Positions 2,512 to 63,914 of a DNA stretch of 64,000 nucleotides are shown here, piece after piece (position 1 is the first letter of the stretch; every line of letters begins with the position of its first letter). A program made the position numbers and the translations under genes. The DNA comes from a virus. The notes under the pieces are model-generated. The model searched no databases. It was not told the DNA's origin and saw only the letters and a list, made by a program, of their open reading frames with translations. Location: positions 32,001 to 96,000 of the IMG/VR virus record IMGVR_UViG_3300050144_000109; one strand, 5' to 3'.

Positions 2512-2874
2512 TAAAAGAAGGTCGCCTGATGCTGTAAAGTATCAGTAAAACATCATTGAACTGACTGGGACCCCCTAAAGAGACTAATCTACCAAGCTGG
2601 TCATCGAAAGAGACCAGTGGCTGAACTAATCACTCAGGTACGGTAAAAAAGATTGGTATTGGGCAATCAGCATCCAAGCTCCTAACGATTCCACAAGAGT
2701 CCATGGAGAAGGTCCAGAGACTAGAGCGAATGCTCGTAGGGCCAAGCGGCTCGAAGTAGTGATCCCCTTTCAAACAGGGTGAAGATATAGTCCGGTCTGC
2801 AATGAAAGTTGCAGCAGTATCAGCCAAAGGCACCTGATACGGGCAGAGTCTTGCGAACTCTGTTGAACAAAACG
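2512..2874 (+). mobile_element. Group I intron (363 nt, no ORF) in DNA polymerase gene
   Basis: Exon ends in U; P1 gcgaU/Gtcgc with U.G pair. P-like aactgactggga, Q-like ggcaatcagcatc, R gtccagagacta, S aagatatagtcc, terminal G 2874. Splicing restores TSD|LDVSAAYP (pol B motif A) in frame. Confidence 0.93.
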
Positions 2875-3153
2875 CTCGATGTAAGCGCAGCATACCCCAC
2901 CACAGAAGTTACACACAACATCTCCAAAGAGACCACCAGAAAAGAAATTATTAAGATCGATGGATGTGAAGAGTTCATCAAGAGAATGAACACCATCAAC
3001 TTCTCAGCAGGTCACGTCAATGCAGTAGAGTTCTGCACTGATTTGTTTGGCATGCCTGAGTTGGATGAGATGCTGGACGCTTTCAACGAGTACAGAAACG
3101 CAAATAAACAAACCTTAGAGCACGCCGAATCAACACACCGTCTGGCAGCATAA
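2875..3153 (+). CDS. Split DNA polymerase gp82-like subunit, exon 2 (spliced product 574 aa)
   Basis: Begins LDVSAAYPTTEV (DxxSxYP-type motif A); 92 codons to the stop. Confidence 0.88.
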   Translation, partial: LDVSAAYPTTEVTHNISKETTRKEIIKIDGCEEFIKRMNTINFSAGHVNAVEFCTDLFGMPELDEMLDAFNEYRNANKQTLEHAESTHRLAA

Positions 3154-3155
3154 GT

Positions 3156-3203
3156 GACTTTACTGACGCACAGCCTCAAAAGGGCCAGTGCGCCAGTAAA
3201 GTC
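3156..3203. terminator. Long stem-loop between convergent genes
   Basis: gactttactgacgcac...gtgcgccagtaaagtc inverted repeat. Confidence 0.65.
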
Positions 3204-3209
3204 CTTGCA

Positions 3210-4022
3210 TCATTGCGTAGATTTTCTAGTTAAGTAAGCATTTGCTAAACGTGTAGCAAAGTTACCAGACTCACAAGAAGCACCATAGTACCTTCTAGAG
3301 AATCCAGTCCAGTCTTTTCTCACCAGTGCTTCATGCAGTGCATTGTTGGATTTGATGTAGTGACAAAGTGCTTTTAATTGTGCTTCTTCAGACAGACTAA
3401 TTGCCTCAAAGAAACTACAAGCATTAAGATGCCCACAGACCTTGTATTTAGAGCCAGGAAGGCTGAAAATCCCATACAGGCCACTCTCTATGGCTTCTTC
3501 ATCAAAGAACGCTCTAGCGTCGTTTAAACGCTGCAGCTCTCGAATCCCACCGATATAACCACCCGGACTACTGGAGCAAATGTCAGGACGTTTCATAGCA
3601 AGCTCGTTCGCCTCTCGTCGAGAAAGCTTACTCACAATGTTCCCGTAAAACAAATGCCTTTCAAACGTAGTAACAATCCCCCCTGTGTTATAAAATCCAA
3701 TCCCATCTGAGAAGACATCAATAACTGCCCAAAGCATCGGAGAGTCGATCAACAACACATTCGCCATCTTCTCCACAGACCGATTTGTTAGAAATCGATC
3801 CTCAATGTATTCACGCAAAGAGTCTTGACTGCTTTCACCGTAGACGACCCCCCAACGATCAGTCTCGGTGCAGCGATTAGAGAGTTGGTATTCCTGCAAC
3901 GCACTTTGAGTGATCTTATCGAAGTTACCGGATACTCGCAAATCCAATTTCTGAATTTCATTGAGCGCACGCTGGAGCCGTTTAATTTCTTCGCCACTGT
4001 GGTTGAGTGAATATGTAGTCAT
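3210..4022 (-). CDS. Endolysin-like protein: peptidoglycan-binding domain plus N-acetylmuramidase (DUF3380-like) domain
   Basis: N-terminal EIKRLQRALN..GNFDKITQSALQEYQ (PG-binding). FERHLFY, GGYIGGIRELQRL and WTGFSRRYYG match DUF3380 muramidase patterns. Start at MTTYSL assumed. Confidence 0.8.
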   Translation of the reverse strand: MTTYSLNHSGEEIKRLQRALNEIQKLDLRVSGNFDKITQSALQEYQLSNRCTETDRWGVVYGESSQDSLREYIEDRFLTNRSVEKMANVLLIDSPMLWAVIDVFSDGIGFYNTGGIVTTFERHLFYGNIVSKLSRREANELAMKRPDICSSSPGGYIGGIRELQRLNDARAFFDEEAIESGLYGIFSLPGSKYKVCGHLNACSFFEAISLSEEAQLKALCHYIKSNNALHEALVRKDWTGFSRRYYGASCESGNFATRLANAYLTRKSTQ

Positions 4023-4172
4023 TTTTAATCGAGTTAAAATAAAGGCTAAGTGTGACAACAAATGAGAAAAGGGTGGGCAAACAAAGAAAAAAGAAAGCTG
4101 TTTTCTCTGTAGCGTATAGTTATCTTACTACACCAAGCAGCAAGATAACTATACGATTAGAGAAGGCTTCGT

Positions 4173-4784
4173 TTAAAAGCCAGCTTTCTGCAAAGCCCTG
4201 AGGGCTTTGAAGCGAGCTCGTAATTGTGGGCTGAGAAGTGCTGCCCACTTGGAGATGAATACGAGGGACTTGTGGCCAAACTTACCGACCTTCGCACCCC
4301 TTTCCACTACCAGTTGTGCAACCTGCTTTTCGATGATCAGGTCAACGGTGAAACGGAGTGCATCCTCCATCACCTTTGCACCGCACTTGCGCGCAGCGTA
4401 GTCGTCCGCCTCAATTTCGAACTCGTCGATATTAAGCACGCCTGCCACGCCAGCGGCCTTTTCTGAGTACAGATGTCCGGCGCGCAGATGTCCAACTTCG
4501 TGTGCGACAACTGCATTCCTAAAAGCAATCGGCGTGTTATCCCAAAACTCTGGGGACAGCATCACCGCGTGTTTCTGAGGTTCAATTCCAGAAGCCTTGA
4601 AAGCGCTGATGACCGCATCACTGCTGGTGTCAAACTTTTGGCAGCAGGCCAACATGGTGTTCGCCATGGCTGACCCGTTTCCGATCACCACGAGGTAACC
4701 TTCTTCTGTCCATTCGAAACGTTCCGCCTTCTCGGCAGACGTTTCGAACAACTTGCCAAACATATTTTCGAAGTTGAATTCCAT
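4173..4784 (-). CDS. Putative zinc metallopeptidase (M48/zincin-like)
   Basis: AVVAHEVGH (HExxH) followed by EIEADDYA. AGGA RBS precedes MEFNFENMF, so the start is later than the track ORF. Confidence 0.65.
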   Translation of the reverse strand: MEFNFENMFGKLFETSAEKAERFEWTEEGYLVVIGNGSAMANTMLACCQKFDTSSDAVISAFKASGIEPQKHAVMLSPEFWDNTPIAFRNAVVAHEVGHLRAGHLYSEKAAGVAGVLNIDEFEIEADDYAARKCGAKVMEDALRFTVDLIIEKQVAQLVVERGAKVGKFGHKSLVFISKWAALLSPQLRARFKALRALQKAGF

Positions 4785-15837: not shown

Positions 15838-18312
15838 ATGAGAATAACGAAGATTGTCCTGGCTGGCTTTGAGCGATTCAAGACCAACGAAATCAAACAC
15901 TTTAGCCTAGAGATCAAGGAGCCTCTCCTGGTCATCCTGGGGTCTAATGGATCTGGAAAGACGAGTCTGCTCAGGCAACTGACGCCCTATCCTCCTCATC
16001 CATCCGAGTTTGAAAAGACAGGATCCAAAGAAATCTATATTACCCATAACAATAGCCAGTACGTTTTAAAATCTACATTCTCTTCAGGACAGAAGCACTT
16101 CTTCTCTGTAGACGGATTAGTCCTCAATGATTGGGGTACTGTCACAGTACAGAAAGAGCTGGTCTCAACGCACTTCAATGTGAATGCTTCTACCTTGGGT
16201 TTGACGCTTGGTGAAGAGCGTTTCAGCGCCATGAATACATCCAAAAGAAAAGAGTGGCTGGTGCACCTGTGTGAGACAGATTACCTCTACGCCATTCAGG
16301 TGTACAACAAACTCAGAGAAAAGCACAGAGACATCCAGGGTGCACTCAAGATTGCTCAGCGTAGACTCAATGCTGAAACACAAAAGCAACTGGGTACAGA
16401 AGAACAAGCCCTTCTACTGAACCAAGCCAACCTGCTCCACAACTGCCTGAATGATCTACTGGAAGAAAGAAAGCCAGTAGAGAGTGACACCCACACACTT
16501 GGCTTAGAGCAAGAAAAGCTATCCTCACAGATCCTCAGATTCAAGGACAAGCTCAATAAGTTAATGGAGGAAGTATCCAGATACCCTCGTTATACACAGC
16601 AGGGCATCTCCGATCTTTTGGCCAGAGTAGATACCAATACTTCTGCCTGTAGCGCTGTGCTTCAGACCTACTCCCAGCAGCACGCAACACTGGATGAGAA
16701 AGTCACAACACTTCAAAAAGCAGAAGAGCAGACCATCGATTCTCTTCAGCGGTCTATCTTCATGCTGAAGGGTACACAGTCCGCCAAACAAGCCAAGATG
16801 CTCTTCACGGAAGACGACTTCGACGCACAAACTGCACACGATGCCTTTACCAGTATCAAGTCCATTCTGATCGATATCTTTGCTGAGATTCCCTGTAATG
16901 TAGACAGGAAGTATTCCTCAGAGAAACTGAATGAAGCCAAGCAAACCCTACTCAAACTGCAGAACAACAGAAAACTCGTTGGTGCTGAACTTCAGTCTAC
17001 ACATGCAGCCAAGCTGCACATGGAGTCCCACCAATCAAAACCAAATGTGACTTGTGAAAAGTGCAACCACAGATTCAGTCTTCATTTTGATCAAGTCAAA
17101 CTAGACGGACTCAACACCCATTGCACCAATCTAAAGAATAGGCTAGAAGTCCTGGACGCTGAGACTGTTATACTGGAAGCCTATATCCAGCAGTGCAGCC
17201 AGTATGCAAACCTTTACCGACAGTACCACCAACTCACAACCTCTACAAAGACACTCTACCATTACTGGGACTACTTGAGTGCGAGAAGGGTTGTCACAGA
17301 CAAACCAGAGTCTGGAAACAATGCGCTCCTGGTCATTGATCGAGATCTGATACTGCAGATCAGTTACGCACAAGTACAAAAAGAAATCAAAGACAAAGAA
17401 GAACTCCTGCAGTCCATGAAGAAGGTAGGCTCCGGAGACCTCAAAGAACTCGTTACCCAGCGCTCTGAGCTAGAAAACCTGATCGGTATTCAAACCAACA
17501 GACTGGTCAGACTCGGCCAAAAGAAAGCAAAGTACACAATCCTGTCTAATCAGATCAAGCAGCTTGACAATGCAAACCAATACGTCAACAAGATCCTAGA
17601 GGAAAAAGACAAGCTTAATACCGAACAACAAGAAACCATTCGCAGACAGCACTTCAACCAAGCAGTCAAGGAACTGCAAAGTGCATTGGCATCCAAAGAA
17701 CACATCTTGAACCAGAACAAGATGCAGCAAGGTGTCATTAACCACATCCAATTGCAAATCTCAGAACTAGAAAAAGAAGAGAAAGCTTACACGCTGCTGG
17801 TCAAAGCACTTTCTGTGAGCGACGGTTTGATTGCAGAAGGACTCTTCGGATTCATCAATGAACTCATCACCAGAATGAACCACATTGTAGACCAAGTCTG
17901 GCAGTACCCAATGACCATCATGCCGTGCACACTGGACGGTGAGAATGTAGACTTAGACTACAAGTTCCCAGTCAAGATCTCTACCTCTGGCGCCATTAAA
18001 GACGTTGCTGACGGCTCTAAGGGCCAAGTAGACATGATGGACATGGCTTTCTTGATCACCGCCATGTCGTACATGGGGATGACAGACTCCGCATTGATTC
18101 TGGATGAGATGGGCTCCAGCTTCGATACAGAGCACAGAACCGCTTTGATCATCCTCATCAAGTCTCTGGTAGAGCAACAATCCTTCAATCAGATCTTCAT
18201 GGTCTCTCACGACTACCACCAGTGGTCAGCACTGAATGCACAAGTCATCAAGTTGGTCAACAGCACCGAGAAACTCCCTTCCAATTACAACGAACATGTA
18301 CAAATGCAGTAA
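15838..18312 (+). CDS. sbcC: SbcC/Rad50-like SMC ATPase
   Basis: Walker A GSNGSGKTS, coiled coils, zinc hook CEKC, signature GSKGQ, Walker B LILDE, H-loop VSH. Confidence 0.92.
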   Translation: MRITKIVLAGFERFKTNEIKHFSLEIKEPLLVILGSNGSGKTSLLRQLTPYPPHPSEFEKTGSKEIYITHNNSQYVLKSTFSSGQKHFFSVDGLVLNDWGTVTVQKELVSTHFNVNASTLGLTLGEERFSAMNTSKRKEWLVHLCETDYLYAIQVYNKLREKHRDIQGALKIAQRRLNAETQKQLGTEEQALLLNQANLLHNCLNDLLEERKPVESDTHTLGLEQEKLSSQILRFKDKLNKLMEEVSRYPRYTQQGISDLLARVDTNTSACSAVLQTYSQQHATLDEKVTTLQKAEEQTIDSLQRSIFMLKGTQSAKQAKMLFTEDDFDAQTAHDAFTSIKSILIDIFAEIPCNVDRKYSSEKLNEAKQTLLKLQNNRKLVGAELQSTHAAKLHMESHQSKPNVTCEKCNHRFSLHFDQVKLDGLNTHCTNLKNRLEVLDAETVILEAYIQQCSQYANLYRQYHQLTTSTKTLYHYWDYLSARRVVTDKPESGNNALLVIDRDLILQISYAQVQKEIKDKEELLQSMKKVGSGDLKELVTQRSELENLIGIQTNRLVRLGQKKAKYTILSNQIKQLDNANQYVNKILEEKDKLNTEQQETIRRQHFNQAVKELQSALASKEHILNQNKMQQGVINHIQLQISELEKEEKAYTLLVKALSVSDGLIAEGLFGFINELITRMNHIVDQVWQYPMTIMPCTLDGENVDLDYKFPVKISTSGAIKDVADGSKGQVDMMDMAFLITAMSYMGMTDSALILDEMGSSFDTEHRTALIILIKSLVEQQSFNQIFMVSHDYHQWSALNAQVIKLVNSTEKLPSNYNEHVQMQ

Positions 18313-18329
18313 AAAATAAAGAGCACAAG

Positions 18330-18368
18330 CACTACACCGCCCAAGGAATTAACCTGGGCGGTGTAGTG
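18330..18368. terminator. Stem-loop between convergent genes
   Basis: cactacaccgccca...tgggcggtgtagtg. Confidence 0.7.
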
Positions 18369-18379
18369 TTATATGCTGT

Positions 18380-18751
18380 CTATACATAACTGACGGTAAA
18401 ATCAGTATCGTCGACTCTTCTCCAGATCTCTTTGATCTGAACGTGAGCGTGTTCGTCATTGAACCTCTTAGCGGCTTGATATGTAGACTCCCCGCGCTTA
18501 ATTGAAAACCATCCAGGTTGATGTGCAGTGGACTCATCGACAAAGGGTATCCCAGCAAAGAGTTTGATCTCCTTCATGGGACACTGCTTTGAAACCAATG
18601 CACACACCTTGGTCTTCCTGGTCTCACTCGTGTAGACCAGGAAGACATCCTTTTTGGCATGTCCCTTAGAGGACATGACCATGAACTTCTTCGTGCGCAG
18701 TGCTTGTGCCACTGCGCGAGGCGAGTTCGCGGTTGATGCTATTGTGTTCAT
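18380..18751 (-). CDS. Hypothetical protein (accessory cassette)
   Basis: 123-aa ORF overlapping the upstream gene's stop (ATGA). Confidence 0.6.
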   Translation of the reverse strand: MNTIASTANSPRAVAQALRTKKFMVMSSKGHAKKDVFLVYTSETRKTKVCALVSKQCPMKEIKLFAGIPFVDESTAHQPGWFSIKRGESTYQAAKRFNDEHAHVQIKEIWRRVDDTDFTVSYV

Positions 18752-19017
18752 AGCATCGGGATACTAGTTCGCTCGAAACGAGCTTTGAATTTCTTGAGCA
18801 GGCGTTCAACGGGGATGTGCTCATTGAGCTCAGACCAGCGCTTGTAACGACCCTCACAGACTATCTTTTCCATGGGGGACTTCTGACTATGCGAAAAAGC
18901 GGTCATTCTTTCTGCAAAACGGGTTGGGCTTAAACTCAACCCTATTATGGTTACCTTACTGTTCTTCTCTCTGACCATGCTGATGTAAACTTGGCCAAGT
19001 GAATTGATTGCGGTCAT
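18748..19017 (-). CDS. Hypothetical protein, weak GIY-YIG/T5orf172-like N-terminus
   Basis: aaggag RBS; GQVYI...IIGLSLSP pattern. Confidence 0.55.
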   Translation of the reverse strand: MTAINSLGQVYISMVREKNSKVTIIGLSLSPTRFAERMTAFSHSQKSPMEKIVCEGRYKRWSELNEHIPVERLLKKFKARFERTSIPML

Positions 19018-19059
19018 GGTGAAACTCCTTGCCTTTATGGCATTGTGGTTGGGGAATGT

Positions 19060-19100
19060 CGACGACTGCTCTCCCGAAGAAGAGCAGAGAGTCGAGACTC
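19060..19100 (-). repeat. 41-bp hairpin element, copy 2
   Basis: Identical to 4831-4871. Confidence 0.9.
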
Positions 19101-19142
19101 TATATTAGATCAAATGCTCAGGAGACAGCATTGTGACTGTGT

Positions 19143-19418
19143 TTAACCTTCTTCAGCTAAGATCCATCGTTCTCCAGAAAGAATTCTCAATGCCTTTTCT
19201 TTTGCACGATCGATGTAAAAGTCGTCTTCGTACACAGCGTCTTCTTCAGACCCTTTTTTCGGGGTGCTGATCTTCCCATCTTCCCTGACAAGAATTCTTC
19301 CCCAAGGTCCGGAGAAAGAAATTCCCTCTATTAGACACCGTGTACCTTCCCGTATTTCCGTAGTTCGCTCGTAACTGTACTTGTTGGCGGACTCGACAGG
19401 TTGCTGGTTTGTTTTCAT
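19143..19418 (-). CDS. Hypothetical protein (accessory cassette)
   Basis: aaggag RBS before MKTNQQ; promoter motif upstream. Confidence 0.65.
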   Translation of the reverse strand: MKTNQQPVESANKYSYERTTEIREGTRCLIEGISFSGPWGRILVREDGKISTPKKGSEEDAVYEDDFYIDRAKEKALRILSGERWILAEEG

Positions 19419-19469
19419 GGTAATGCTCCTTGTGCTTTGCATAGTGGTTGAGAAATACTTCTTCTCTTT

Positions 19470-19499
19470 TACTATATGTGACTATAAACAACTGCATTC
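19470..19499 (-). promoter_or_regulatory. Putative early promoter
   Basis: Minus strand gaatgcagttgtttatagtcacatatagta. Confidence 0.62.
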
Positions 19500-31875: not shown

Positions 31876-32727
31876 TCAAGTCATCTCGCTCAAGATGGAC
31901 CTGTAGAATGGATTGCTAATCATAGACAATCCCAAATGAATGCGGTCTTTGGTGGTGGCGAAACTCCAGTTGTATTTCTCAGCAATGCCCAAGATTTCTT
32001 GCCTCAGCTTTTTGTCGTGTGGGTGGAAGATGGTGGAGTCCCCAAAGACTTGCAGGAATAGCTCGTTGAACGGAATACGCATGCTCTCTTTGTGATCGGA
32101 GAACTTGGTATACCAAAGCGCTTTGGACTTCAGCACGCCTGTGTGGGACTCTAGCAAGTCCAGGCTCTTGAAATCCCTGCTACTGAGCAAGTCATACGCA
32201 TAATGCGTCAGAACCAATCCACGAATCCTTTTGTCTGGATGAATCAGTCCAGAGAAATGTTTCATGGTCTCGGTGACCGGTCTACCTTCATAGAACTTGG
32301 TCAGCACTTTACCAATCAGCTTGGTCGTGCGCATCTGCAATTCAGTGTTGTCTGTCCTGAACCGAGCGTGCTTGTACTTGTGTTTGATGTCGTACACACT
32401 GGTATAGAAGACTATCTTGAGGCCAGCATCCCAAACCCTGAAGACATCCCGAAGAATGTCGACTTCTTCTTCCAGTACAGCAGTCCATTCTTCCACCTTG
32501 ATCTGGTCTAACGTATTCCTTTCTACAGAACCATACAGATTCCTGAACAGTGTCAGCACATTGATCCAGACCTCATCGTAGTTCTTCAAATCAATCCCAC
32601 CAGGAATGACCCGGTCGGGATCAAACACAGGCTTAGGACCCACTGCAATAGACTCCAGCGCAAGCGCAGTGCCAATCGACAATGAGTAAGAGCTCATCGC
32701 TCTGTTTGACAAAGCGCTCACTATCAT
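31876..32727 (-). CDS. Conserved core protein (phiKZ gp66-like)
   Basis: LSIGTALALES, INVLTLFRN, LLESHTG motifs; follows sbcD. Confidence 0.7.
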   Translation of the reverse strand: MIVSALSNRAMSSYSLSIGTALALESIAVGPKPVFDPDRVIPGGIDLKNYDEVWINVLTLFRNLYGSVERNTLDQIKVEEWTAVLEEEVDILRDVFRVWDAGLKIVFYTSVYDIKHKYKHARFRTDNTELQMRTTKLIGKVLTKFYEGRPVTETMKHFSGLIHPDKRIRGLVLTHYAYDLLSSRDFKSLDLLESHTGVLKSKALWYTKFSDHKESMRIPFNELFLQVFGDSTIFHPHDKKLRQEILGIAEKYNWSFATTKDRIHLGLSMISNPFYRSILSEMT

Positions 32728-35620: not shown

Positions 35621-35651
35621 CCTTTTCTTCCTTTTCTTCTTTACTTACTTT

Positions 35652-36002
35652 TCAAGTCAGACTCATCAAGAAATCAATGTTCTCCTGTGTCACGGGTTGA
35701 GTGCGAACAGTACCGTACCACGTCAGCACGGTACTTACCAAGGGCCTAGGTAGGCTGGCAGCATCGCTGAGTTGCCTAGGGTCATTATCAGAGAAGAAGT
35801 TCATGTGGGGTGCCAGGGGCTTCATGGCGTCTGCCATGTAGTTATCCGTGGCAATGAACAAATTCATGGCGTCACCGTCAAAATCAGCATTGAACGTCTT
35901 GACGTCCAGAATAGACATTGTGATCGTGTGATCGTCTGGGTCATCCTTGATGACTGTGATTCGGACCAGTTGACAAGATGCTTTTGTTAAGTTGGGGTTT
36001 CT
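35652..36002 (-). CDS. rpoC: nvRNAP beta' N-terminal catalytic subunit (phiKZ gp55/56.1-like), exon 2
   Basis: RNPNLTKAS...FNADFDGDAMN catalytic motif. Confidence 0.92.
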   Translation of the reverse strand, partial: RNPNLTKASCQLVRITVIKDDPDDHTITMSILDVKTFNADFDGDAMNLFIATDNYMADAMKPLAPHMNFFSDNDPRQLSDAASLPRPLVSTVLTWYGTVRTQPVTQENIDFLMSLT

Positions 36003-36407
36003 CTTATTGTCCGATTGTGGTGGTGAATCACAACCCGGTGTGCTTAGACACCCGCCAACACTTTCATGCTGGAACAGACCATCTCATACTCCTTCCTCAG
36101 ACCTGAGGTTAGGAGCCCTTCTGTTTCGCCTGATTAACCAATCAAGCTACGCTACTGGCTTCCATGCAGAACTTCTCTGCACGTGCTGTCGCTGGCCGTT
36201 GAACTCGCACCATGGATCTTATTCAGACCTGTAGGTGATCAGCTGCGTGGTTACCCAATCCATCATCTTTGTTACCGTACCTGAGTAGTTACTTCAGCCA
36301 CCAATGTCTTTCGAATCACTGGTTTGGTAGATGAGGCCCTATAGGGCTTTCCCGTCAATTAAGAAGGTTTTGCACTGGCTATCTCTAACCAGGGGAACTA
36401 ATCATTA
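36003..36407 (-). mobile_element. Group I intron (405 nt, no ORF) in nvRNAP beta' gene
   Basis: Exon ends in U; P1 ggaaU/Gttcc. P aattgacgggaa, Q ggtaaccacgcagc, R gttcaacggcca, S gagatggtc, terminal G at 36003. Splicing restores GYWN|RNPNL (NRxPxL motif). Confidence 0.92.
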
Positions 36408-37553: not shown

Positions 37554-37700
37554 TGGGAGTGCTTCCTTTTTCTTCAGTGGTTGGAGAGACTAGGATAGAG
37601 GCGTCATAGTAGCAAGTAGATGGAAGACAAACTCCATCTACTTGCTAGAAGACGAACCCCAATGAACACGGCAGGTACATCCTATTCCTGGTATTCACTA

Positions 37701-37731
37701 AGATGATATACGGTTGTGATTTTTTGCAATC
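37701..37731 (-). promoter_or_regulatory. Putative early promoter for the beta' gene
   Basis: Minus strand gattgcaaaaaatcacaaccgtatatcatct. Confidence 0.68.
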
Positions 37732-37763
37732 ATAAAGTCCCAGGATCCGGACAAAAAAGAAGC

Positions 37764-37807
37764 CGTGTCGTTCTAAGCCAGGCATGACCCCAGCTTAGAA
37801 CGACACG
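37764..37807 (-). terminator. Intrinsic terminator after chimallin
   Basis: cgtgtcgttctaagc...gcttagaacgacacg, followed on the minus strand by a U-run. Confidence 0.8.
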
Positions 37808-37845
37808 AGCAACTAGACTTACTTGTTACTGAACAGAGTCAGCGA

Positions 37846-39687
37846 TCAGTACTGAGCACCACCGAACTGGTTGCGGTAAGGAGCATTGCCCTGACCAGCA
37901 CCACCGATGTTGAACGGGTTGGAGCCCGCTTGGTTCTGCGAGTACAGCAGCGACTGCAGACCGTCGAACTGGACACGACCACCGACATTGTCAGCGAACG
38001 GGTTCTGCGACTGCAGGCTGATGGCCACGCCCATCGATTGCACAGCGCCCAGAAGTGCACGCAGGAAGTCAGGCATCAGGTTGACCATGCGGTCCACGCC
38101 AGTGAAGGTCACCGGGAAGTGGAACTTGTCTTGGATCAGTCGACGCTGTTCTTCCAGACGCACGTGCACTGGCTTGGACGTCGAGTAGGTGCGCGCATTG
38201 CTCCAGCGTGCCAGAGCGCTCGGGTCCTGGATGCCAGCCACGTTGGCCATGGCCAGATAGTCGAAGTCATGGACACTGCGCTTTTGGCCTTCGGTATCGA
38301 TGTAGAAACCAGCCAGCATGCAATCCTGCAGGGTGCCAGTGCTGTCTGCCGTCATCTGCACCGGGTTGGCAGTGCTGTTGTACATGCGCGAGAAGTTGCC
38401 GCCCGTCAGGATGTCAGCGCCAGCCAGAATCTCCTGGATTGCGTTGGCGTCACCGCGAGCTGCTTCTGCCCAGACTGCATTGCCCCAACCTTCAGCCGTG
38501 TGGCGACCGATGACCATGGAGATTGCGATCTCCTGACGGATGAGGCTGCTCATGAACATGTCAGCATCTGCCACGGACCATCCAGCGCCAGTGTCGATCG
38601 GAGCACCGTAGCCGCCTTGCTCGTAGCCAGGCACATTGGGCAGGTTGCCTTCGATGTTCAGCGCACCGATGTTGCGCATGTCGATGCGGCGAGCACCCAT
38701 CTGCGGACGCGGAAGCAGCGCCACACGCCACAGTGACGAACTCTGCAGCGCCAGAACACCAACGATGTTCATGAGCATTGCCGGGATGTCAGTGGCGTAG
38801 TAGTTGTCCATGCTGGTCATGATGAAGCGACCAGTGAACTTGCGGGTGTCTTGCGGCACCATACCGAACCCCATCTGACCGAACTGCTGCTGGGGGGTAG
38901 CGGGACTGTAGATCAGGTCCATGTAGCCAGTGGCACGGGCCAGACGGAACGAATCGCCTTCATTCATGCCGGTCTTGTTGGTGCCTTGCTGGCGCTTCAC
39001 GATCGACGTGTCGACGATGATGTCCGAGCGGAACGGGTGACCATCAGCACCGGTCAGCGAGTCTTGGCCGAAGGTCAGCGACATGTTGATCGCTTCTTCC
39101 GAGACCAGCTGGCTCAGGTTGATCGGCACGTAGTCCGAGCGACCTTGGATGATCGGCGAGTGCATGGCTTGCAGCATGCTGGTCAGCAGCGTGTAGCAGG
39201 CGGCCTCGTCCTTGAAGTTGAAGTCGCGCGGGGCCACCATCGGGTTGATGCCGACCGTGGTGATGCCGTCGTCCAGAATCGACAGCTTCGACTCGACAAA
39301 CCGGTCCACTTTCATCTGGAAGGTGGCGTCGATTGCATCCGCCGGACCACGGGGGACTTCGATCGGGCGGTTGTTGAACTGGATCATCAGCGGCGTCTTG
39401 GGTTCTGCAGAACCTTCGATCAGCAGGACACCACTGGTGCGGATCTTGCTGTTCAGCGAGGCCGGGCTGATGTCAGTGCCCATGAAGACCAGCGCCGAGT
39501 AGGCGACACCGTGCTGCATGTGGTCAAACACCCAGCAGTCGATCTTGATGTCACCAGCGTTGGCGTTGGCTTTGATGATGGCCTGTGCTGCGTCGAACGC
39601 CTCCTGGGTCTGTGCCGACAGGCGGCTGCGGCTCAGAACGTTGGTGGAGCCGTGCGACAGGAAAGACAGATTCTTTGCGAAAGACAT
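37846..39687 (-). CDS. chmA: Chimallin, phage nuclear shell protein (ChmA/PhuN, phiKZ gp54-like)
   Basis: 613 aa, directly upstream of the gp55-like gene; strong codon bias; own promoter and terminator; G/N/Q-rich C-terminal tail. Confidence 0.82.
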   Translation of the reverse strand: MSFAKNLSFLSHGSTNVLSRSRLSAQTQEAFDAAQAIIKANANAGDIKIDCWVFDHMQHGVAYSALVFMGTDISPASLNSKIRTSGVLLIEGSAEPKTPLMIQFNNRPIEVPRGPADAIDATFQMKVDRFVESKLSILDDGITTVGINPMVAPRDFNFKDEAACYTLLTSMLQAMHSPIIQGRSDYVPINLSQLVSEEAINMSLTFGQDSLTGADGHPFRSDIIVDTSIVKRQQGTNKTGMNEGDSFRLARATGYMDLIYSPATPQQQFGQMGFGMVPQDTRKFTGRFIMTSMDNYYATDIPAMLMNIVGVLALQSSSLWRVALLPRPQMGARRIDMRNIGALNIEGNLPNVPGYEQGGYGAPIDTGAGWSVADADMFMSSLIRQEIAISMVIGRHTAEGWGNAVWAEAARGDANAIQEILAGADILTGGNFSRMYNSTANPVQMTADSTGTLQDCMLAGFYIDTEGQKRSVHDFDYLAMANVAGIQDPSALARWSNARTYSTSKPVHVRLEEQRRLIQDKFHFPVTFTGVDRMVNLMPDFLRALLGAVQSMGVAISLQSQNPFADNVGGRVQFDGLQSLLYSQNQAGSNPFNIGGAGQGNAPYRNQFGGAQY

Positions 39688-41211: not shown

Positions 41212-43344
41212 TTACGAATAGTAGTCGGACACGAGTCGTTTGATCTTATCGTCGTTGGTATAGAATCCCAGTGTTTCAAGCACCAAGTAAAAACTCTTGC
41301 ACAGCTCACTGACTAACTTGCGAAAGTCAATGACTTGCTTTACCTCTTCAGGGATGCCCACAGCTTGAAGAATGGGTGCTGGCAGATGGAACGTCGAGAT
41401 AAACATCTTCTCATTCTTGACCATGTACCGTGACAGTCTTTCAGCAAGCTCCCTGTCTTTAAAAGACTCAATCCAAGCGCGAGTCTTTCTAGTGTTGTCA
41501 GTTGTGAGCGAGATTTTCACAGTCCCATAAGGGGGAGGCGCGACTTCTCCGTAGGATTGTGACCAGACTTCCATCCAGAAGTTGTGGTTCTGGTAAGGAC
41601 TTTCCTCTTCTTCTTTGGTGTAACTTTCTTTTTCTTTAATAGAACCAAAGCGAATGTACTTAGATTCTCCTCTGAGCAAACTATCCATGATCTCACGCTC
41701 AATCTCAGCGACAATCTTGAGATACTTCATGATAGAAATCTTCTTACCTGCCTTGACAGTATCCATGATGTCAACCATCATGTCTTTAGATCTAGAGATG
41801 ATTTCCTTATTGATGTTGGAGTTCTTTAAATGCACCCCTTTGATTTCAAGATCGGATGGATCCAATATATTCCCTTCTTGACAACCAATGCCAGCATAGT
41901 AATGTTTACCCAGCTGCGTAGGAACAAACACATCAAAACGAAATTCACTTTTCATGGCAATTCTAAACATGTACTCTTTGTCTACGCCCATGTTGGCGGA
42001 CATGGTAGCCAGGATGTGTACAATGGCTGAAGATGCAATGAACGTCATAGTGGCTTGCATAGCGATGGCACGCTCTGAGAAATTCAACTCCCCTTCATAC
42101 CAAATCACCCAGTCTTGTACTGTGAAGATGGTAGAGTCAGTATCACTCAGGACAGCAGCTCTTCGAATACTTTCAGGGAAATACCCTACGCTGGCTGGGA
42201 TGTTGTCACTGACCATGATGACTTTGATAAAGTCAGCATATTCCTGAACTGTTTGTTGTGCATTTAAGATGGTCAGCGCCAGTGTGTCAATGTCTTCCGG
42301 CTTTCTGACTTTGGAATAATCCTTACCAATGCCTCTAGCTTCTTCTTCACAGATCTGGTGCGCAAGGTTTACATAGGCATCAGGAGCATTTTCAATCACC
42401 TTTTGTGCACTTGGACATACTCCTTTAATTTTATTGCTCAAACGCGTGATAAAGGCACGCATAAAGGATTCATTGAGTAGCAAGACTTGGTACAGATCTC
42501 CCGTATAAACAAATGCCGCTCTTTGGAAACCATTGAGTTTTTCGATGGTGGAACGGATCTTCTGTATCCACAAGTCATTTCTGAAATACAAATCAGTAGA
42601 GTATTTCACACAAGCCAGCGCCTGTTCGATACTGGGGATTACCAAATTGTACTTTTGAATAACGCCAATCAGTGCATCGTAGTCTGTGTGTCCAACAATT
42701 GAAATGATGTTGTTGTTTACAGTGCGCCAATCTCGATAGTGTCTATTCCCACTGAGCAGTTTTTCATTGTCGGCGTTTCCATAACCACTGGTGCTCCTGC
42801 ATACACTGGTGAGCGTGGAGTGTGCTGTCTTATTGAACAGTGGTGTACTGGGGGTGACATGGGCCCCACTCACCGCATTGTTTTTGAGCTTACGATTGGT
42901 TTGTTCAGATTTCTTGAACGTGTACAATTGCGCATCTTTATTAGCCTTTGCAACAAACATCGCTTTCTTAGCTTTATTTCGAAGCGCGATATTGCCATCA
43001 ATGTACTTTGCCAACAGTGATTTCTTTTTCTTGGTATTGATGTACGTTGTGAACGTGGGCGCTATGATGTCACCAGCAGCAATAGACTCATCGATGTACT
43101 GCTTGAGTGTACCTTCTTTCAGTTCACGATCACCAAACTCATTTCTCTCCAAGTACTCTACCTTGGGATCTTTGAACTCAAACACACCGCCTGGACGAAG
43201 TGCTTTTGAGATAAATCCCCTGACCTCTTCTTCGCTGGCACCCGTCATCAACTCCAAATACAACCTACAATCGTGCACGTAGTCGCCCAATGGATTCAAC
43301 TTACGAACATATTCGTCTACTGGCTTAACAAATGGATCTTGCAT
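41212..43344 (-). CDS. Split family-B DNA polymerase, catalytic subunit (phiKZ gp50-like)
   Basis: Motif B QTNRKLKNNAVSG, motif C SDTDS, KHY, EIKG; aagga RBS before MQDPF. Confidence 0.9.
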   Translation of the reverse strand: MQDPFVKPVDEYVRKLNPLGDYVHDCRLYLELMTGASEEEVRGFISKALRPGGVFEFKDPKVEYLERNEFGDRELKEGTLKQYIDESIAAGDIIAPTFTTYINTKKKKSLLAKYIDGNIALRNKAKKAMFVAKANKDAQLYTFKKSEQTNRKLKNNAVSGAHVTPSTPLFNKTAHSTLTSVCRSTSGYGNADNEKLLSGNRHYRDWRTVNNNIISIVGHTDYDALIGVIQKYNLVIPSIEQALACVKYSTDLYFRNDLWIQKIRSTIEKLNGFQRAAFVYTGDLYQVLLLNESFMRAFITRLSNKIKGVCPSAQKVIENAPDAYVNLAHQICEEEARGIGKDYSKVRKPEDIDTLALTILNAQQTVQEYADFIKVIMVSDNIPASVGYFPESIRRAAVLSDTDSTIFTVQDWVIWYEGELNFSERAIAMQATMTFIASSAIVHILATMSANMGVDKEYMFRIAMKSEFRFDVFVPTQLGKHYYAGIGCQEGNILDPSDLEIKGVHLKNSNINKEIISRSKDMMVDIMDTVKAGKKISIMKYLKIVAEIEREIMDSLLRGESKYIRFGSIKEKESYTKEEEESPYQNHNFWMEVWSQSYGEVAPPPYGTVKISLTTDNTRKTRAWIESFKDRELAERLSRYMVKNEKMFISTFHLPAPILQAVGIPEEVKQVIDFRKLVSELCKSFYLVLETLGFYTNDDKIKRLVSDYYS

Positions 43345-43430
43345 GAATAATTCCTTGTTATAGTGAAGCGTATTCTTTCTCGTTAGATATTGGTACATGG
43401 TGCTTTTATACAGAAAATCAAACAGCATAA

Positions 43431-44030
43431 GTGGGGTCGTAGCGCACCGGCAACCGCCAATACGCTACGACCCCACCGGGTGTATAACCAGACAACAATG
43501 ACAGAGAAAAGTCGATATACCGTAAGTGGTCGGATCCACCACCAAGAAGACTACACTCTTCCGAAGGCAATTGACTTCTATTTGCTTTGCCAACGATCCA
43601 AGCTCAAACAAGGGTCTACATTGAGAGGGGTGCCGACGCCTTGGAACCAGTGAATCAAACAACAAGACAGTGTAGAAAATCGATTACCGTCTTCAGAACA
43701 TCTCAGTGTTCAAAATGGATCCGACCACACGACAAGTCGCAAGCAGATAAACCCACCTGCGACAAAAAAAGAAGAGCGTTCGCCTTCCTTGAATGAGAGA
43801 CCAACTGAAAAGAGTAGCAGATGAACAAGCAGAATTCCACCACTGTTGCGGCCTGAAAGACTCGGGAAATCCCACCAAGGGATGAGTCTAGGCTGCTGAC
43901 ATGTGAAAGGTGGACTGCGTTCATGTCCTCAAACCAATTGAAATCTCACTCAAGGAAGGGTACTTACTTTTTTCCAACCACAGGAGCAGCAAATGCCACT
44001 TGCCAAGAAATAGCTTCAATGACCAGTGTG
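43431..44030 (-). ncRNA. Candidate large structured non-coding RNA
   Basis: No convincing ORF; several nested helices whose mismatches mostly become G.U on the minus strand; promoter-like motif upstream and long hairpin at the 3' end. Confidence 0.6.
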
Positions 44031-44036
44031 TTTGCA

Positions 44037-44067
44037 TACTATATGTATATTTTAAGTGCTTGTCATG
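44037..44067 (-). promoter_or_regulatory. Putative early promoter for the structured RNA region
   Basis: Minus strand catgacaagcacttaaaatatacatatagta shares ACATATAGTA with the motifs at 5286 and 19470. Confidence 0.5.
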
Positions 44068-44462
44068 ATGGAAAGATCGAAGTTATTGAAACCACTCCGA
44101 ATCAAGAGGTCTCGAATACTGTTCATGTCAGAAGAAGAAACGCCGTGAATAATCAAGCGCACGGTCTGCGAGTTGACCAGTGTAGGTTGTGTAGCAATCC
44201 ATTCGTGCGCAATGATCCGGTAGTCACCACTACTGGTCTTGATGCGAATGTAGGTGAGGTCCCTGGCATCTCTGGAGATGCCGGTGCCTAGTGTTGGGAA
44301 TACGGTTGCATGGGTCGCTGCAAGGTCGCCTTGAAACTTGACAGCATCGTTGTACATGAGAATGCTGGTGACAGTTGCATTCTCATAACCAATGCCTAAA
44401 ATAGCCACTGCTTTTAAAGTGATATTGTAGGTCTGGTTCAGTTCAATATTGAACAGTCTCAT
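44052..44462 (-). CDS. Conserved hypothetical protein (phiKZ gp49-like)
   Basis: MRLFNIELNQTY..., ATGA overlap with the upstream gene. Confidence 0.65.
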   Translation of the reverse strand: MRLFNIELNQTYNITLKAVAILGIGYENATVTSILMYNDAVKFQGDLAATHATVFPTLGTGISRDARDLTYIRIKTSSGDYRIIAHEWIATQPTLVNSQTVRLIIHGVSSSDMNSIRDLLIRSGFNNFDLSIMTST

Positions 44463-44899
44463 GGTGGATATTGTCCTGTACGTAGCGGATGTGGGGTAGA
44501 ACTGGTGAGATGGATATGCCCGTAGATGACACAGTCGTAAACATACGGGCAATACTTCTCACCGTTCGCTGGGTTGATGGTCATAGGAATGTTTTCCTTT
44601 TGAAACAGTGACAGCAATCTCAGCGCTAGCAAGTTGTACTGGATGATGCGGTTGGAGAAATTGCTTGTCCATTCACCAGAATCACTGAGCATGCTCTCGG
44701 AGCTCAATCTGGGTATCTCGAACTGAACACCAAAGAAACTATTTACTTCCACTTTGTTCGAGACGGATTCATAATCAGACAAAGCTTTCTGTACTGCTTT
44801 TCTAATTAGCTCTTCTACGTCTTTAAAGTCCGGTACTTTAAGACAGGTCAACATCTCGTCCAACATCTCTTCTGTGCGCAGCACAATGATCTTACTCAT
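44459..44899 (-). CDS. Hypothetical protein (small-gene array)
   Basis: 146-aa ORF in a tightly packed operon. Confidence 0.65.
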   Translation of the reverse strand: MSKIIVLRTEEMLDEMLTCLKVPDFKDVEELIRKAVQKALSDYESVSNKVEVNSFFGVQFEIPRLSSESMLSDSGEWTSNFSNRIIQYNLLALRLLSLFQKENIPMTINPANGEKYCPYVYDCVIYGHIHLTSSTPHPLRTGQYPP

Positions 44900-62748: not shown

Positions 62749-63621
62749 ATGCCTCGTCTTACTGATGCGTTACTGACTGGCCAGGCGCAAAGCCGTGGTC
62801 GTCAAGTGCCGTTGATTGACATCCAGTATGGTGGTCAGAACGGTTATGCGCCGAACATGGGTGAGTGGGCCAGTACCACCCACTACGTCCGTCGCAACTT
62901 GGTGTGTCTGCTGCTGGAAGCCCCCAAGGGTTTCAAGGACATGCCGGATCCCACCTTCTGGGTGTCGGCTCTGAAGTCCATGGTGGAAGTGCACGCCAAG
63001 TCGTGGGATGGTTTCACGTCCGGCCTGACGGTGGATGTCGGTGCTGAAACGGCTGTGGGTGGTGGTGGTGAGAAGTTCCATGACTTCACCAACGTGACCC
63101 GTGCACAGACTGTTCCTGTGGCAACCTTCACGGATTTGTATGGTCGCCCGATTCAGCAATTCCTGCATGACTGGATCACGTACCTGATCGCTGATCCGGA
63201 CACCAAGGTGCCAATGCTTTCGACGGTCTCTGGTAAGGCTCCTACGGACCTGCTGGCGGACATGTACTCGGCAACGATGCTGTTCTATGAGCCGGACCCC
63301 ACCCACACCAAGGTGGCCAAGGCTTGGCTGACCACCAACATGTACCCGAAGACGACCGGTGACATTCTGGGTAAGCGCGACCTGACGGCCGCTGGTGAAG
63401 CGCTGGAGCTGTCGGTGGAGTGGACTGGTCTGACCCAAACGGGCATGGGTGTGGTCAACTTCGCTCAGCAACTGGTGGACAACATCATCCTGACGAATGC
63501 CAATCCGAACCTGCGTCAAGCGTTCATGCAAGCCATTGACTCGGATGTGGACGGTAACTTCGCTGCTGCTTACCACGGTGGCGTGACCACCATTGGTGCT
63601 GAAGCTGTCCAGCCGAGCTGA
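62749..63621 (+). CDS. Tail tube protein (phiKZ gp30-like)
   Basis: 290 aa immediately after the sheath gene; ATMLFYEPDP, AWLTTNMYP. Confidence 0.85.
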   Translation: MPRLTDALLTGQAQSRGRQVPLIDIQYGGQNGYAPNMGEWASTTHYVRRNLVCLLLEAPKGFKDMPDPTFWVSALKSMVEVHAKSWDGFTSGLTVDVGAETAVGGGGEKFHDFTNVTRAQTVPVATFTDLYGRPIQQFLHDWITYLIADPDTKVPMLSTVSGKAPTDLLADMYSATMLFYEPDPTHTKVAKAWLTTNMYPKTTGDILGKRDLTAAGEALELSVEWTGLTQTGMGVVNFAQQLVDNIILTNANPNLRQAFMQAIDSDVDGNFAAAYHGGVTTIGAEAVQPS

Positions 63622-63640
63622 CCTTTGACTTAACGTCATA

Positions 63641-63692
63641 ACTCTCCATCTACTCCTCAAGGGTTTAAAAGCCCTGAAGGAGTAGATGGAGT
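63641..63692. terminator. Stem-loop after the tail tube gene
   Basis: ctccatctactcct...aggagtagatggag, flanked by cataa and ttatg. Confidence 0.7.
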
Positions 63693-63914
63693 CTTTATGA
63701 AGTAAAAAAGAAAGCGGTTACTTTCTTTTGACCATCTGGCCCAGTCGTTCACATAAGTGACCGTAGCTGAGAATGCTGAGTGCAATCCAGTTGACGATGA
63801 CTATTGTGATTTTTTGAGATCGGGAAAGTTGGCACATTTGTTTTGTTCATGTTTGGGTGCAGCTTGCGAATTCCTTTTAAAGTTACTCGCAAGCTGCACT
63901 CATCAAAACAACGT

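Follow-up and report, generated by a model that had tools for sequence, protein, structure and literature searches.

Which kind of element fills the gap between the genes of a DNA polymerase and its SH3-fold partner in the IMG/VR virus record IMGVR_UViG_3300050144_000109? The record is 148 kb long and ~55% complete, and the part of it that was analyzed, referred to here as the window, comprises 64,000 nt (positions 32,001 to 96,000 of the record). The two genes correspond to gp50 and gp49 of phage phiKZ, and the element lies between them on their strand, the minus strand of the window. An initial annotation, made from the nucleotides alone, had proposed a structured non-coding RNA (ncRNA) of ~600 nt on this strand, and this proposal is borne out by a fold far more stable than expected, by 173 of 173 base pairs kept in a related sequence and by the lack of a conserved reading frame. 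As to its role, the chances are about even that the minus strand from ~44035 to 43431 is the gene for a ~605-nt structured RNA that acts in trans as a stand-alone regulatory or scaffold RNA of a chimallivirus.

Folding of the whole gap yielded a minimum free energy (MFE) of -248.6 kcal/mol on the minus strand, against -183.2 kcal/mol in shuffled controls (z -9.5); the corresponding value for the plus strand was -207.6 kcal/mol (z -7.1). The 620-nt stretch from 43430 ranked first among 308 minus-strand stretches when scored against the GC-regressed background of the window (z -4.2). Two long hairpins, termed rod 1 (43766-43972) and rod 2 (43519-43733), reached z -6.5 and z -4.6 when folded alone, and none of 200 shuffles was equally stable in either case. 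The helices named in the initial annotation were recovered: 43526-43538 pairs with 43716-43728 (13 nt, 100% complementary) within the 20-bp stem that closes the 215-nt rod 2, 43736-43763 forms a hairpin of 12 bp, four of them G.U when read on the minus strand, and the long hairpin at 43431-43476 comprises 20-22 bp. The helix 43783-43798/43944-43959 could even be extended to 43783-43807 with 43935-43959 and forms the base of the 207-nt rod 1, which encloses the smaller helices listed there. The description of the gap as the longest one in the window is not strictly shown, as ORF-poor stretches (ORF, open reading frame) of similar size exist at 18752-19497 and 35621-36404. Other strong folds in the background scan, on the minus or plus strand, were found at 18217-18836, 63501-63900, 37601-37900 and 4101-4400, with z values of -3 to -3.8 for 300-nt stretches; the fold at 18217 ranked second among the 620-nt stretches.

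The comparative evidence for the window RNA comes from one alignable relative, locus L007, whose polymerase is 80% identical. In the consensus fold derived from both sequences, each of the 173 pairs is of a standard type in both when read on the minus strand, so that the earlier argument from G.U pairs for this strand holds. Pairs changed on both sides number 27, compared to 0-4 if the 3' partners are slid by one to three columns, and 13 of them are situated in well-aligned helices (two in the 5' hairpin, three in rod 1, one in the 12-bp hairpin, two in the closing stem of rod 2 and five in the 3' hairpin). Several of the changes in L007 exchange G-C and G-U or convert A-U to U-G, which permits pairing on the minus strand only; the 12-bp hairpin exhibits both kinds of change and keeps all its pairs on this strand alone. 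Rod 1 carries four single pair-preserving changes in addition to its three double ones and no broken pair, with 93% identity in the paired columns, and the closing stem of rod 2 shows four single compensations besides its two double ones.

Conservation is unevenly distributed along the RNA. Identity between the window and L007 amounts to 83% for the 5' hairpin, rod 1 and 12-bp hairpin combined (rod 1 alone 86%), whereas third codon positions are 39% identical in the SH3DP gene and 50% identical in the polymerase gene. The inner part of rod 2 and the leader of the polymerase gene, at 54-58% identity, show almost unconstrained drift. A third lineage, represented by contigs from aquatic and freshwater metagenomes, differs by one substitution and one 1-nt deletion across 43909-44051, while ~8-10% of positions, mostly every third base, differ in the adjoining SH3DP coding sequence. 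The RNA fold is almost certainly real, strand-specific and under selection.

Coding potential was assessed for the same region. ORFs of 38-87 aa occur in the gap on both strands, and in the comparison of the window with L007 the matches change frame through 1-2-nt insertions or deletions, with amino-acid identity (54-80%) below nucleotide identity. None of the five longest gap ORFs matched a Pfam family, and their PHROG matches were noise (E of at least 0.05). Because the frames switch between the two sequences and neither Pfam nor PHROG gave a match, the region is predicted to encode no protein. Nor could it be assigned to a known RNA family. The Infernal cmscan run proposed in the initial annotation, performed with Rfam 15 at E up to 10, returned only miRNA and sRNA noise on the terminator hairpin, the best match being a miRNA model with 23 bits against a gathering score of 112; at the gathering score, 16 related loci gave no Rfam match. 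ARAGORN identified no tRNA or tmRNA gene in the whole window. The view that the element is not a tRNA, tmRNA, RNase P RNA or intron thus stands, with nothing above noise in Rfam.

The predicted parts of the RNA are compiled in Table 1, with nt 1 being the putative start G44035 on the minus strand. The CUCCU of the junction between the 5' hairpin and rod 1 has an unpaired probability of 0.6-0.9 in the window and of 0.99 in L007. The basal stem of rod 1 is formed by CCCUUCCUUG paired with CAAGGAAGG. The apical loop of rod 2, CCCCUCUCAA at 43630-43621, is unpaired with a probability of 1.0, and L007 exhibits ACACCCUCCUUCC at this apex.

Table 1. Predicted features of the RNA locus and the sites in the window where a long stem is followed by TATG.
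Feature	Position	Strand	Remarks
Promoter-like region	44035..44066	-	TATG 44038-44035, putative start G44035; sequence conserved in L007
5' hairpin (nt 1-47)	43989..44035	-	in MFE and consensus fold; 2 pairs changed on both sides in L007
Junction, mostly unpaired CUCCU	43973..43988	-	within a 35-nt stretch free of differences between the window and L007 (alignment)
Rod 1, conserved core	43766..43972	-	207-nt unbranched irregular hairpin
12-bp hairpin between the rods	43736..43763	-	four G.U pairs
Rod 2	43519..43733	-	215-nt hairpin, variable interior, conserved 20-bp closing stem
Pyrimidine-rich linker	43477..43518	-	small hairpin, loop UUUUCUCU at 43510-43503; poorly conserved in L007
Terminator-type hairpin, predicted 3' end of the RNA	43431..43476	-	20-22 bp; 5 double-sided changes in L007
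Polymerase leader region	43345..43429	-	TATG 43429-43426, 80-nt leader, AAGGAA 43356-43351; leader poorly conserved
Hairpin plus TATG	11547	+	
Hairpin plus TATG	13890	-	
Hairpin plus TATG	18372	+	
Hairpin plus TATG	26372	+	
Hairpin plus TATG	34948	-	
Hairpin plus TATG	37608	-	
Hairpin plus TATG	43429	-	
Hairpin plus TATG	51468	+	
Hairpin plus TATG	53669	-	
Hairpin plus TATG	54405	-	
Hairpin plus TATG	60322	-	
Hairpin plus TATG	63640	-	

Is this RNA a unit of its own or a segment of a longer message? The 5' TATG lies 14 nt past the stop codon of the SH3DP gene and is conserved in L007. In 19 of 33 independent relatives, a TATG occurs no more than 35 nt past the SH3DP stop, where 9.5% would be expected (binomial p 8e-12), and the motif can be extended to the pattern A-T-W-R-TATG-Y-R-R-A. 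A TATG with the +1 position at its G is the late-promoter consensus of phiKZ, which is used by the non-virion RNA polymerase (PMC4666361). In the window, an ATAC/TTAC element is located 8-12 nt upstream of the 5' TATG, some members likewise show TTAC or ATAC, and this element recalls the phiKZ middle-promoter word AAanTTACc. Phages of the phiKZ type are independent of the host polymerase. The promoter-like motif that had been noticed facing into the RNA does exist: hexamers of the sigma-70 type, ATGACA-17-TATAGT, match at 10 of 12 positions, about one such match being expected by chance, and overlap the TATG that recurs at the same place in relatives. A promoter word like AAAATATACATATAGTATG is not repeated elsewhere in the window. 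The initial annotation had called the element a stand-alone early ncRNA; the first half of this label agrees with the sequence signals and the covariation, whereas the second is not supported, a TATG with the start at its G being the signature of phiKZ late promoters and sequence being no guide to timing.

At the other end, the hairpin 43431-43476 is directly followed by a second TATG (43429-43426). Long stems of 11-22 bp followed by TATG, often in the form TATG(A/C)(C/T)G, are found at 12 intergenic sites of the window, so hairpins like the one at the 3' end are not confined to this RNA. This combination looks like a genome-wide punctuation by a terminator and a promoter of the phiKZ non-virion RNA polymerase type, with the promoter role taken from phiKZ. 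Variants of TTTATGCC(G) were the only widely shared words in the corresponding gaps of relatives (20 of 33 independent gaps, none of the coding controls) and are always situated just past the terminal hairpin. At the present locus, the hairpin is best read as the putative terminator of the upstream transcript and the second TATG as the polymerase gene's own predicted promoter. With a terminator hairpin and then a second TATG ahead of the polymerase leader, the arrangement agrees better with a stand-alone unit than with a simple leader of the polymerase gene, and an independent transcript is considered moderately likely.

The limits of the gap depend on the flanking genes. The downstream gene (41212..43344, minus strand) encodes a divergent family-B DNA polymerase of the phiKZ gp50 type (Pfam PF20286, E 3e-231). 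Its listed ORF covers 41212-43428; its start is placed at 43344 (M29), because the polymerase is 707-716 aa long in nearly all of the 120 relatives listed, the alignment to the closest relative begins at M29 and a good Shine-Dalgarno (SD) sequence, AAGGAA, is present at 43356-43351. Consequently, the non-coding gap extends from 43345 to 44051. The listed ORF is 28 codons too long, its first 84 nt representing mRNA leader that includes the TATG motif. The upstream gene (44052..44462, minus strand), which lies outside the RNA, encodes an SH3DP of the phiKZ gp49 type (Pfam PF20287, E 4e-19), an SH3-fold partner of phage DNA polymerases. In phiKZ, gp49 has been described as interacting with the polymerase, and antisense oligomers directed against its mRNA caused a strong defect in plaque formation (PMC12571901).

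The best cultured relatives are Burkholderia phage FLC9 and Ralstonia phages RP12 and RP31 (46-47% identity), followed by PhiPA3 and 201phi2-1 (35-37%), and in metagenomic relatives chimallin is encoded a few kb away. As these closest relatives are phiKZ-like and chimallin is found near the locus in the metagenomic ones, the source phage is classified from its genes as a chimallivirus, i.e., an uncultured, nucleus-forming jumbo phage. DNA nearly identical to 43300-44500 of the window is present in many leaf-litter metagenomes of 2025, and a lineage 90-95% identical to this segment was found in aquatic and freshwater metagenomes, with contigs that break within 43660-43920; the matching sequencing runs are all DNA metagenomes.

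The window is not the only genome with such a gap. The distance between the SH3DP and polymerase genes amounts to 250-750 nt in ~60 of 80 IMG/VR relatives, and 41 of 41 representative gaps fold better than their own shuffles. The mean excess folding is -0.058 kcal/nt in these gaps and -0.012 kcal/nt in polymerase coding controls of the same length (41 loci, Wilcoxon p 5e-12); the window gap, with -0.105 kcal/nt, is among the largest. The gaps can be aligned only within sub-clades. In the best-sampled sub-clade, comprising FLC9 and eight metagenomic sequences with 68-88% identity, the consensus fold contains 29 double-sided compensated pairs. The proposed collection of the intervals between gp49-like and gp50-like genes therefore had a divided outcome, with structure and compensation within sub-clades and no alignment across them. 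In two held-out loci, L098 and L099, the gap has a TATG where it starts, a UUCCUUU hairpin loop midway and a terminal hairpin with TTTATGCC, and it has no sequence similarity to any other gap. Judged by position and predicted structure, the window RNA belongs to a positional class: most relatives carry a structured RNA of 250-750 nt at this site, with the sequence conserved only within sub-clades.

Sequence searches reflect this rapid turnover. The gap gave no blastn match to 50,697 phage records and no match in an exact-word scan of IMG/VR. Two exact-word matches of 21-22 nt in JGI metagenomes were discarded as chance, being unrelated on inspection. Among the related loci, blastn and nhmmer with the single gap sequence found only L007, as did a profile built from the window and L007, which matched neither of the two later loci (L098 and L099). 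A profile of the FLC9 group reached other clusters mainly via the terminator and the polymerase-leader part.

Some relatives show other arrangements at or near this position. RP31 (locus L005, 2022-2458) and FLC1-1B (L006, 1809-2234), both Ralstonia phages, possess a structured gap of 430 nt (z -5.6 to -5.9), with a hairpin and UUAUGCCGC at its end; they were not counted as members, as a small gene without a match to SH3DP intervenes between this gap and the polymerase gene. In phiKZ (L091, 16378-16578) and PhiPA3 (L092, 1305-1488), a mini transcription unit appears to lie between gp49 and gp50, consisting of a hairpin with TATG, ~80-100 nt with the shared word TGTGAATGTAAKTTGATGTG and an intrinsic terminator. 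No published description of this mini-unit was found. In 201phi2-1, the gap between gp81 and gp83 (L093, 1135-1458) contains an unannotated plus-strand ORF of 107 aa with the SD sequence GGAGTG and no Pfam match; the record annotates gp82 on the minus strand over the same DNA, and this strand assignment looks doubtful.

How might such an RNA be made and act? In the proposed scheme, the non-virion RNA polymerase of the phage would start at the G of the TATG 14 nt past the SH3DP stop and transcription would stop at the hairpin 43431-43476, with the polymerase mRNA beginning at the next TATG. The RNA would be a separate product, given this start, this stop and the separate origin of the polymerase mRNA, and read-through from the SH3DP gene may carry it too. 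The conserved 5' core would be the working part, and pyrimidine motifs would be its likely contact with ribosome-binding sites (RBSs) or ribosomes. The least certain steps are the last ones: exposed pyrimidine motifs may pair with SD regions or mimic the 3' end of 16S rRNA and thereby tune the translation of phage or host messages, and the conserved rod 1 may be a protein-binding platform, possibly for the neighbouring replication proteins.

Folded by MFE, 24 of 33 independent gaps of the positional class exhibit a hairpin loop with a pyrimidine run (UCCU, CUCC or CCUC), compared to 13 of 99 sequences obtained by dinucleotide shuffling and 3 of 33 gaps read on the opposite strand. The RBS consensus of the phage is CAAGGA(A/G), and both in L007 and in the FLC9 group the pyrimidine loops fit the polymerase RBS. 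In the window, the invariant exposed CUCCU of the junction is the best local anti-SD candidate, with a length of only 5 nt. No complementarity of at least 15 nt to other parts of the 148-kb contig was found. An anti-SD type of action is doubtful for this particular member.

Several observations weigh against a separate, trans-acting RNA of this kind. The anti-SD feature is weak in the window, where the apical loop reads CCCCUCUC and not CUCCUU, and none of six exposed or candidate segments paired better with 217 phage start regions than with coding controls (p of at least 0.045). The only fully matching anti-RBS word, UUCCUUG, lies paired within the basal stem of rod 1, and a compensated change in L007 preserved this stem and not the anti-SD identity. 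The pair counts come from a single alignable homologue and are biased towards the fold, which was derived from the same two sequences. Across sub-clades the window RNA cannot be aligned, so that common descent of the class is deduced from position only. The discrete RNA itself is deduced from sequence signals and covariation. Finally, no hairpin or terminator separates the SH3DP stop (44052) from the RNA, which makes a long 3' untranslated region (UTR) possible.

The read-through expected from this missing terminator is the starting point of the first alternative, in which the element would be transcribed solely at the end of the SH3DP operon, as an extended, structured 3' UTR or an insulator between cistrons, and would not act in trans. 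Its rods and terminal hairpin would guard the mRNA from 3' exonucleases and separate the SH3DP transcript from that of the polymerase gene. Both the generic nature of the 3' hairpin and the near-neutral evolution of domain 2 and the linker, apart from their stems, agree with such a role. A stabilizer, however, needs the terminal hairpin alone, yet 300 nt on the 5' side, including unpaired parts, are far better conserved than synonymous sites. The strong enrichment of TATG right at the start of the gap across sub-clades is not expected of an operon tail either, and in phiKZ and PhiPA3 a hairpin with TATG directly after gp49 separates the units. Taken together, this explanation is unlikely.

A second alternative places the function in cis. 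Read-through transcripts would carry the structured RNA into the polymerase mRNA, where it would control translation or processing, and the constant position directly upstream of the polymerase gene speaks for this model. Further evidence comes from the FLC9 group, in which the invariant blocks UUGUAACGACCUGUA and UGUAGGUCGACAAGGAG (L003, 3453-4000) pair across the terminator and TATG and cover the polymerase RBS, and in which the conserved loop UUUCCUCCUUGUUUC is complementary to this RBS (ACAAGGAG). This long-range helix could silence read-through transcripts or create an RNase III site. In contrast, the window and L007 have no conserved helix that bridges in this way over the polymerase RBS, and the window RNA offers no exposed complement to its polymerase RBS, CAAGGAAU. 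A strong hairpin and a separate TATG also stand between the RNA and the polymerase leader, which is itself poorly conserved. A leader acting in cis is hence quite improbable for this locus.

A third alternative connects the element to replication. Chimalliviruses have no recognizable primase and their polymerase has an RNase H-clamp subunit, and it has been speculated that RNA-DNA hybrids could start replication in these phages (PMC13648687, PMC13648698). The RNA might accordingly be an origin-associated primer that forms a persistent RNA-DNA hybrid, is cut by the RNase H-clamp protein and primes DNA synthesis in the manner of ColE1 RNA II, which it resembles in its ~600 nt, its strong fold and its position between two replisome genes. 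This origin or primer-RNA option, raised with the initial annotation, finds no backing in the DNA: the gap contains neither iterons nor an AT-rich unwinding element (GC 47% against ~46% genome-wide), and the cumulative GC skew shows no extreme at the locus, the skew being uninformative on a contig that is only ~55% complete. Moreover, a stable terminator hairpin takes the place of a hybrid-forming tract at the end of the RNA, and a fast sequence turnover with kept stems suggests selection on the free RNA. A primer function is therefore very unlikely. Least credible of all is a decayed gene, intron or mobile element that folds by chance: although the sequence is unalignable between sub-clades, purifying selection on the 5' half clearly exceeds that at synonymous sites, pairs are restored by compensatory changes and none is broken, structured gaps hold their position in ~60 relatives and no intron or ribozyme match was obtained.

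A stand-alone RNA gene at this locus would bear on a field in which regulatory RNAs are almost unexplored. Chimalliviruses transcribe their genes inside a protein-walled nucleus, separate from translation. In dozens of lineages, a long structured RNA gene occupies the site between the genes of the polymerase and its SH3-fold partner, retaining its fold despite the turnover of its sequence. Such a gene offers a concrete candidate, open to experimental test, for a regulatory or replication component that is still missing. A conserved RNA gene of ~0.5 kb thus escapes routine annotation in cultured phages, as illustrated by Burkholderia phage FLC9, whose gap (~2709-3244 of LC667451) is without an annotated feature. 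A bolder version would have the whole clade carry a long ncRNA gene between its replisome genes, made by the phage RNA polymerase, with loops that mimic the 16S rRNA 3' end or bind SD sequences, or with an integral part in primase-less replication. This version is rather unlikely; if true, loops of this kind would imply a global RNA-based handle on translation, for example in host shut-off or in the timing of phage messages after export from the nucleus.

Among known systems, the Rfam families GOLLD and ROOL are likewise carried by phages, at least 500 nt long, highly structured and non-coding. Neither model matches even at E 10, however, no tRNA genes lie beside the RNA in the window, and long rods replace the multi-branched ornate core in an RNA that evolves too fast to be aligned across sub-clades. 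Rod 1 is similar to 6S RNA as a rod of ~200 nt with internal loops; it differs in having no large central bubble between closing stems and in being only one of several domains, and no 6S model of Rfam matched (E up to 10). ColE1 RNA II, a structured transcript of ~550 nt tied to replication, is comparable by analogy only, through a phage that has no primase and whose polymerase has an RNase H module, whereas the window RNA lacks origin-like DNA features, has a terminator at its end and contains no identified hybrid-forming tract. RNAIII of S. aureus and RNAs of the RsaE/RoxS type are multi-hairpin riboregulators whose C/U-rich loops pair with SD sequences. The window RNA shares with them the long structured form, and pyrimidine loops are enriched in the related phage RNAs; it differs in that Rfam homology is lacking and that its own loop shows no preference for phage start regions. 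Closest in biology are the candidate ncRNAs of phiKZ, with lengths of 90-200 nt (PMC8545117, PMC10914365). Neither an RNA at the gp49-gp50 position nor the present 0.5-kb class was found described in the literature, and the gp49-gp50 gap of phiKZ itself has no sequence similarity to that of the window. Although they are far shorter than the ~600 nt with two 200-nt rods found here, the phiKZ candidates are likewise encoded by a chimallivirus, located upstream of genes and flanked by a promoter of the phage on one side and a premature or intrinsic terminator on the other.

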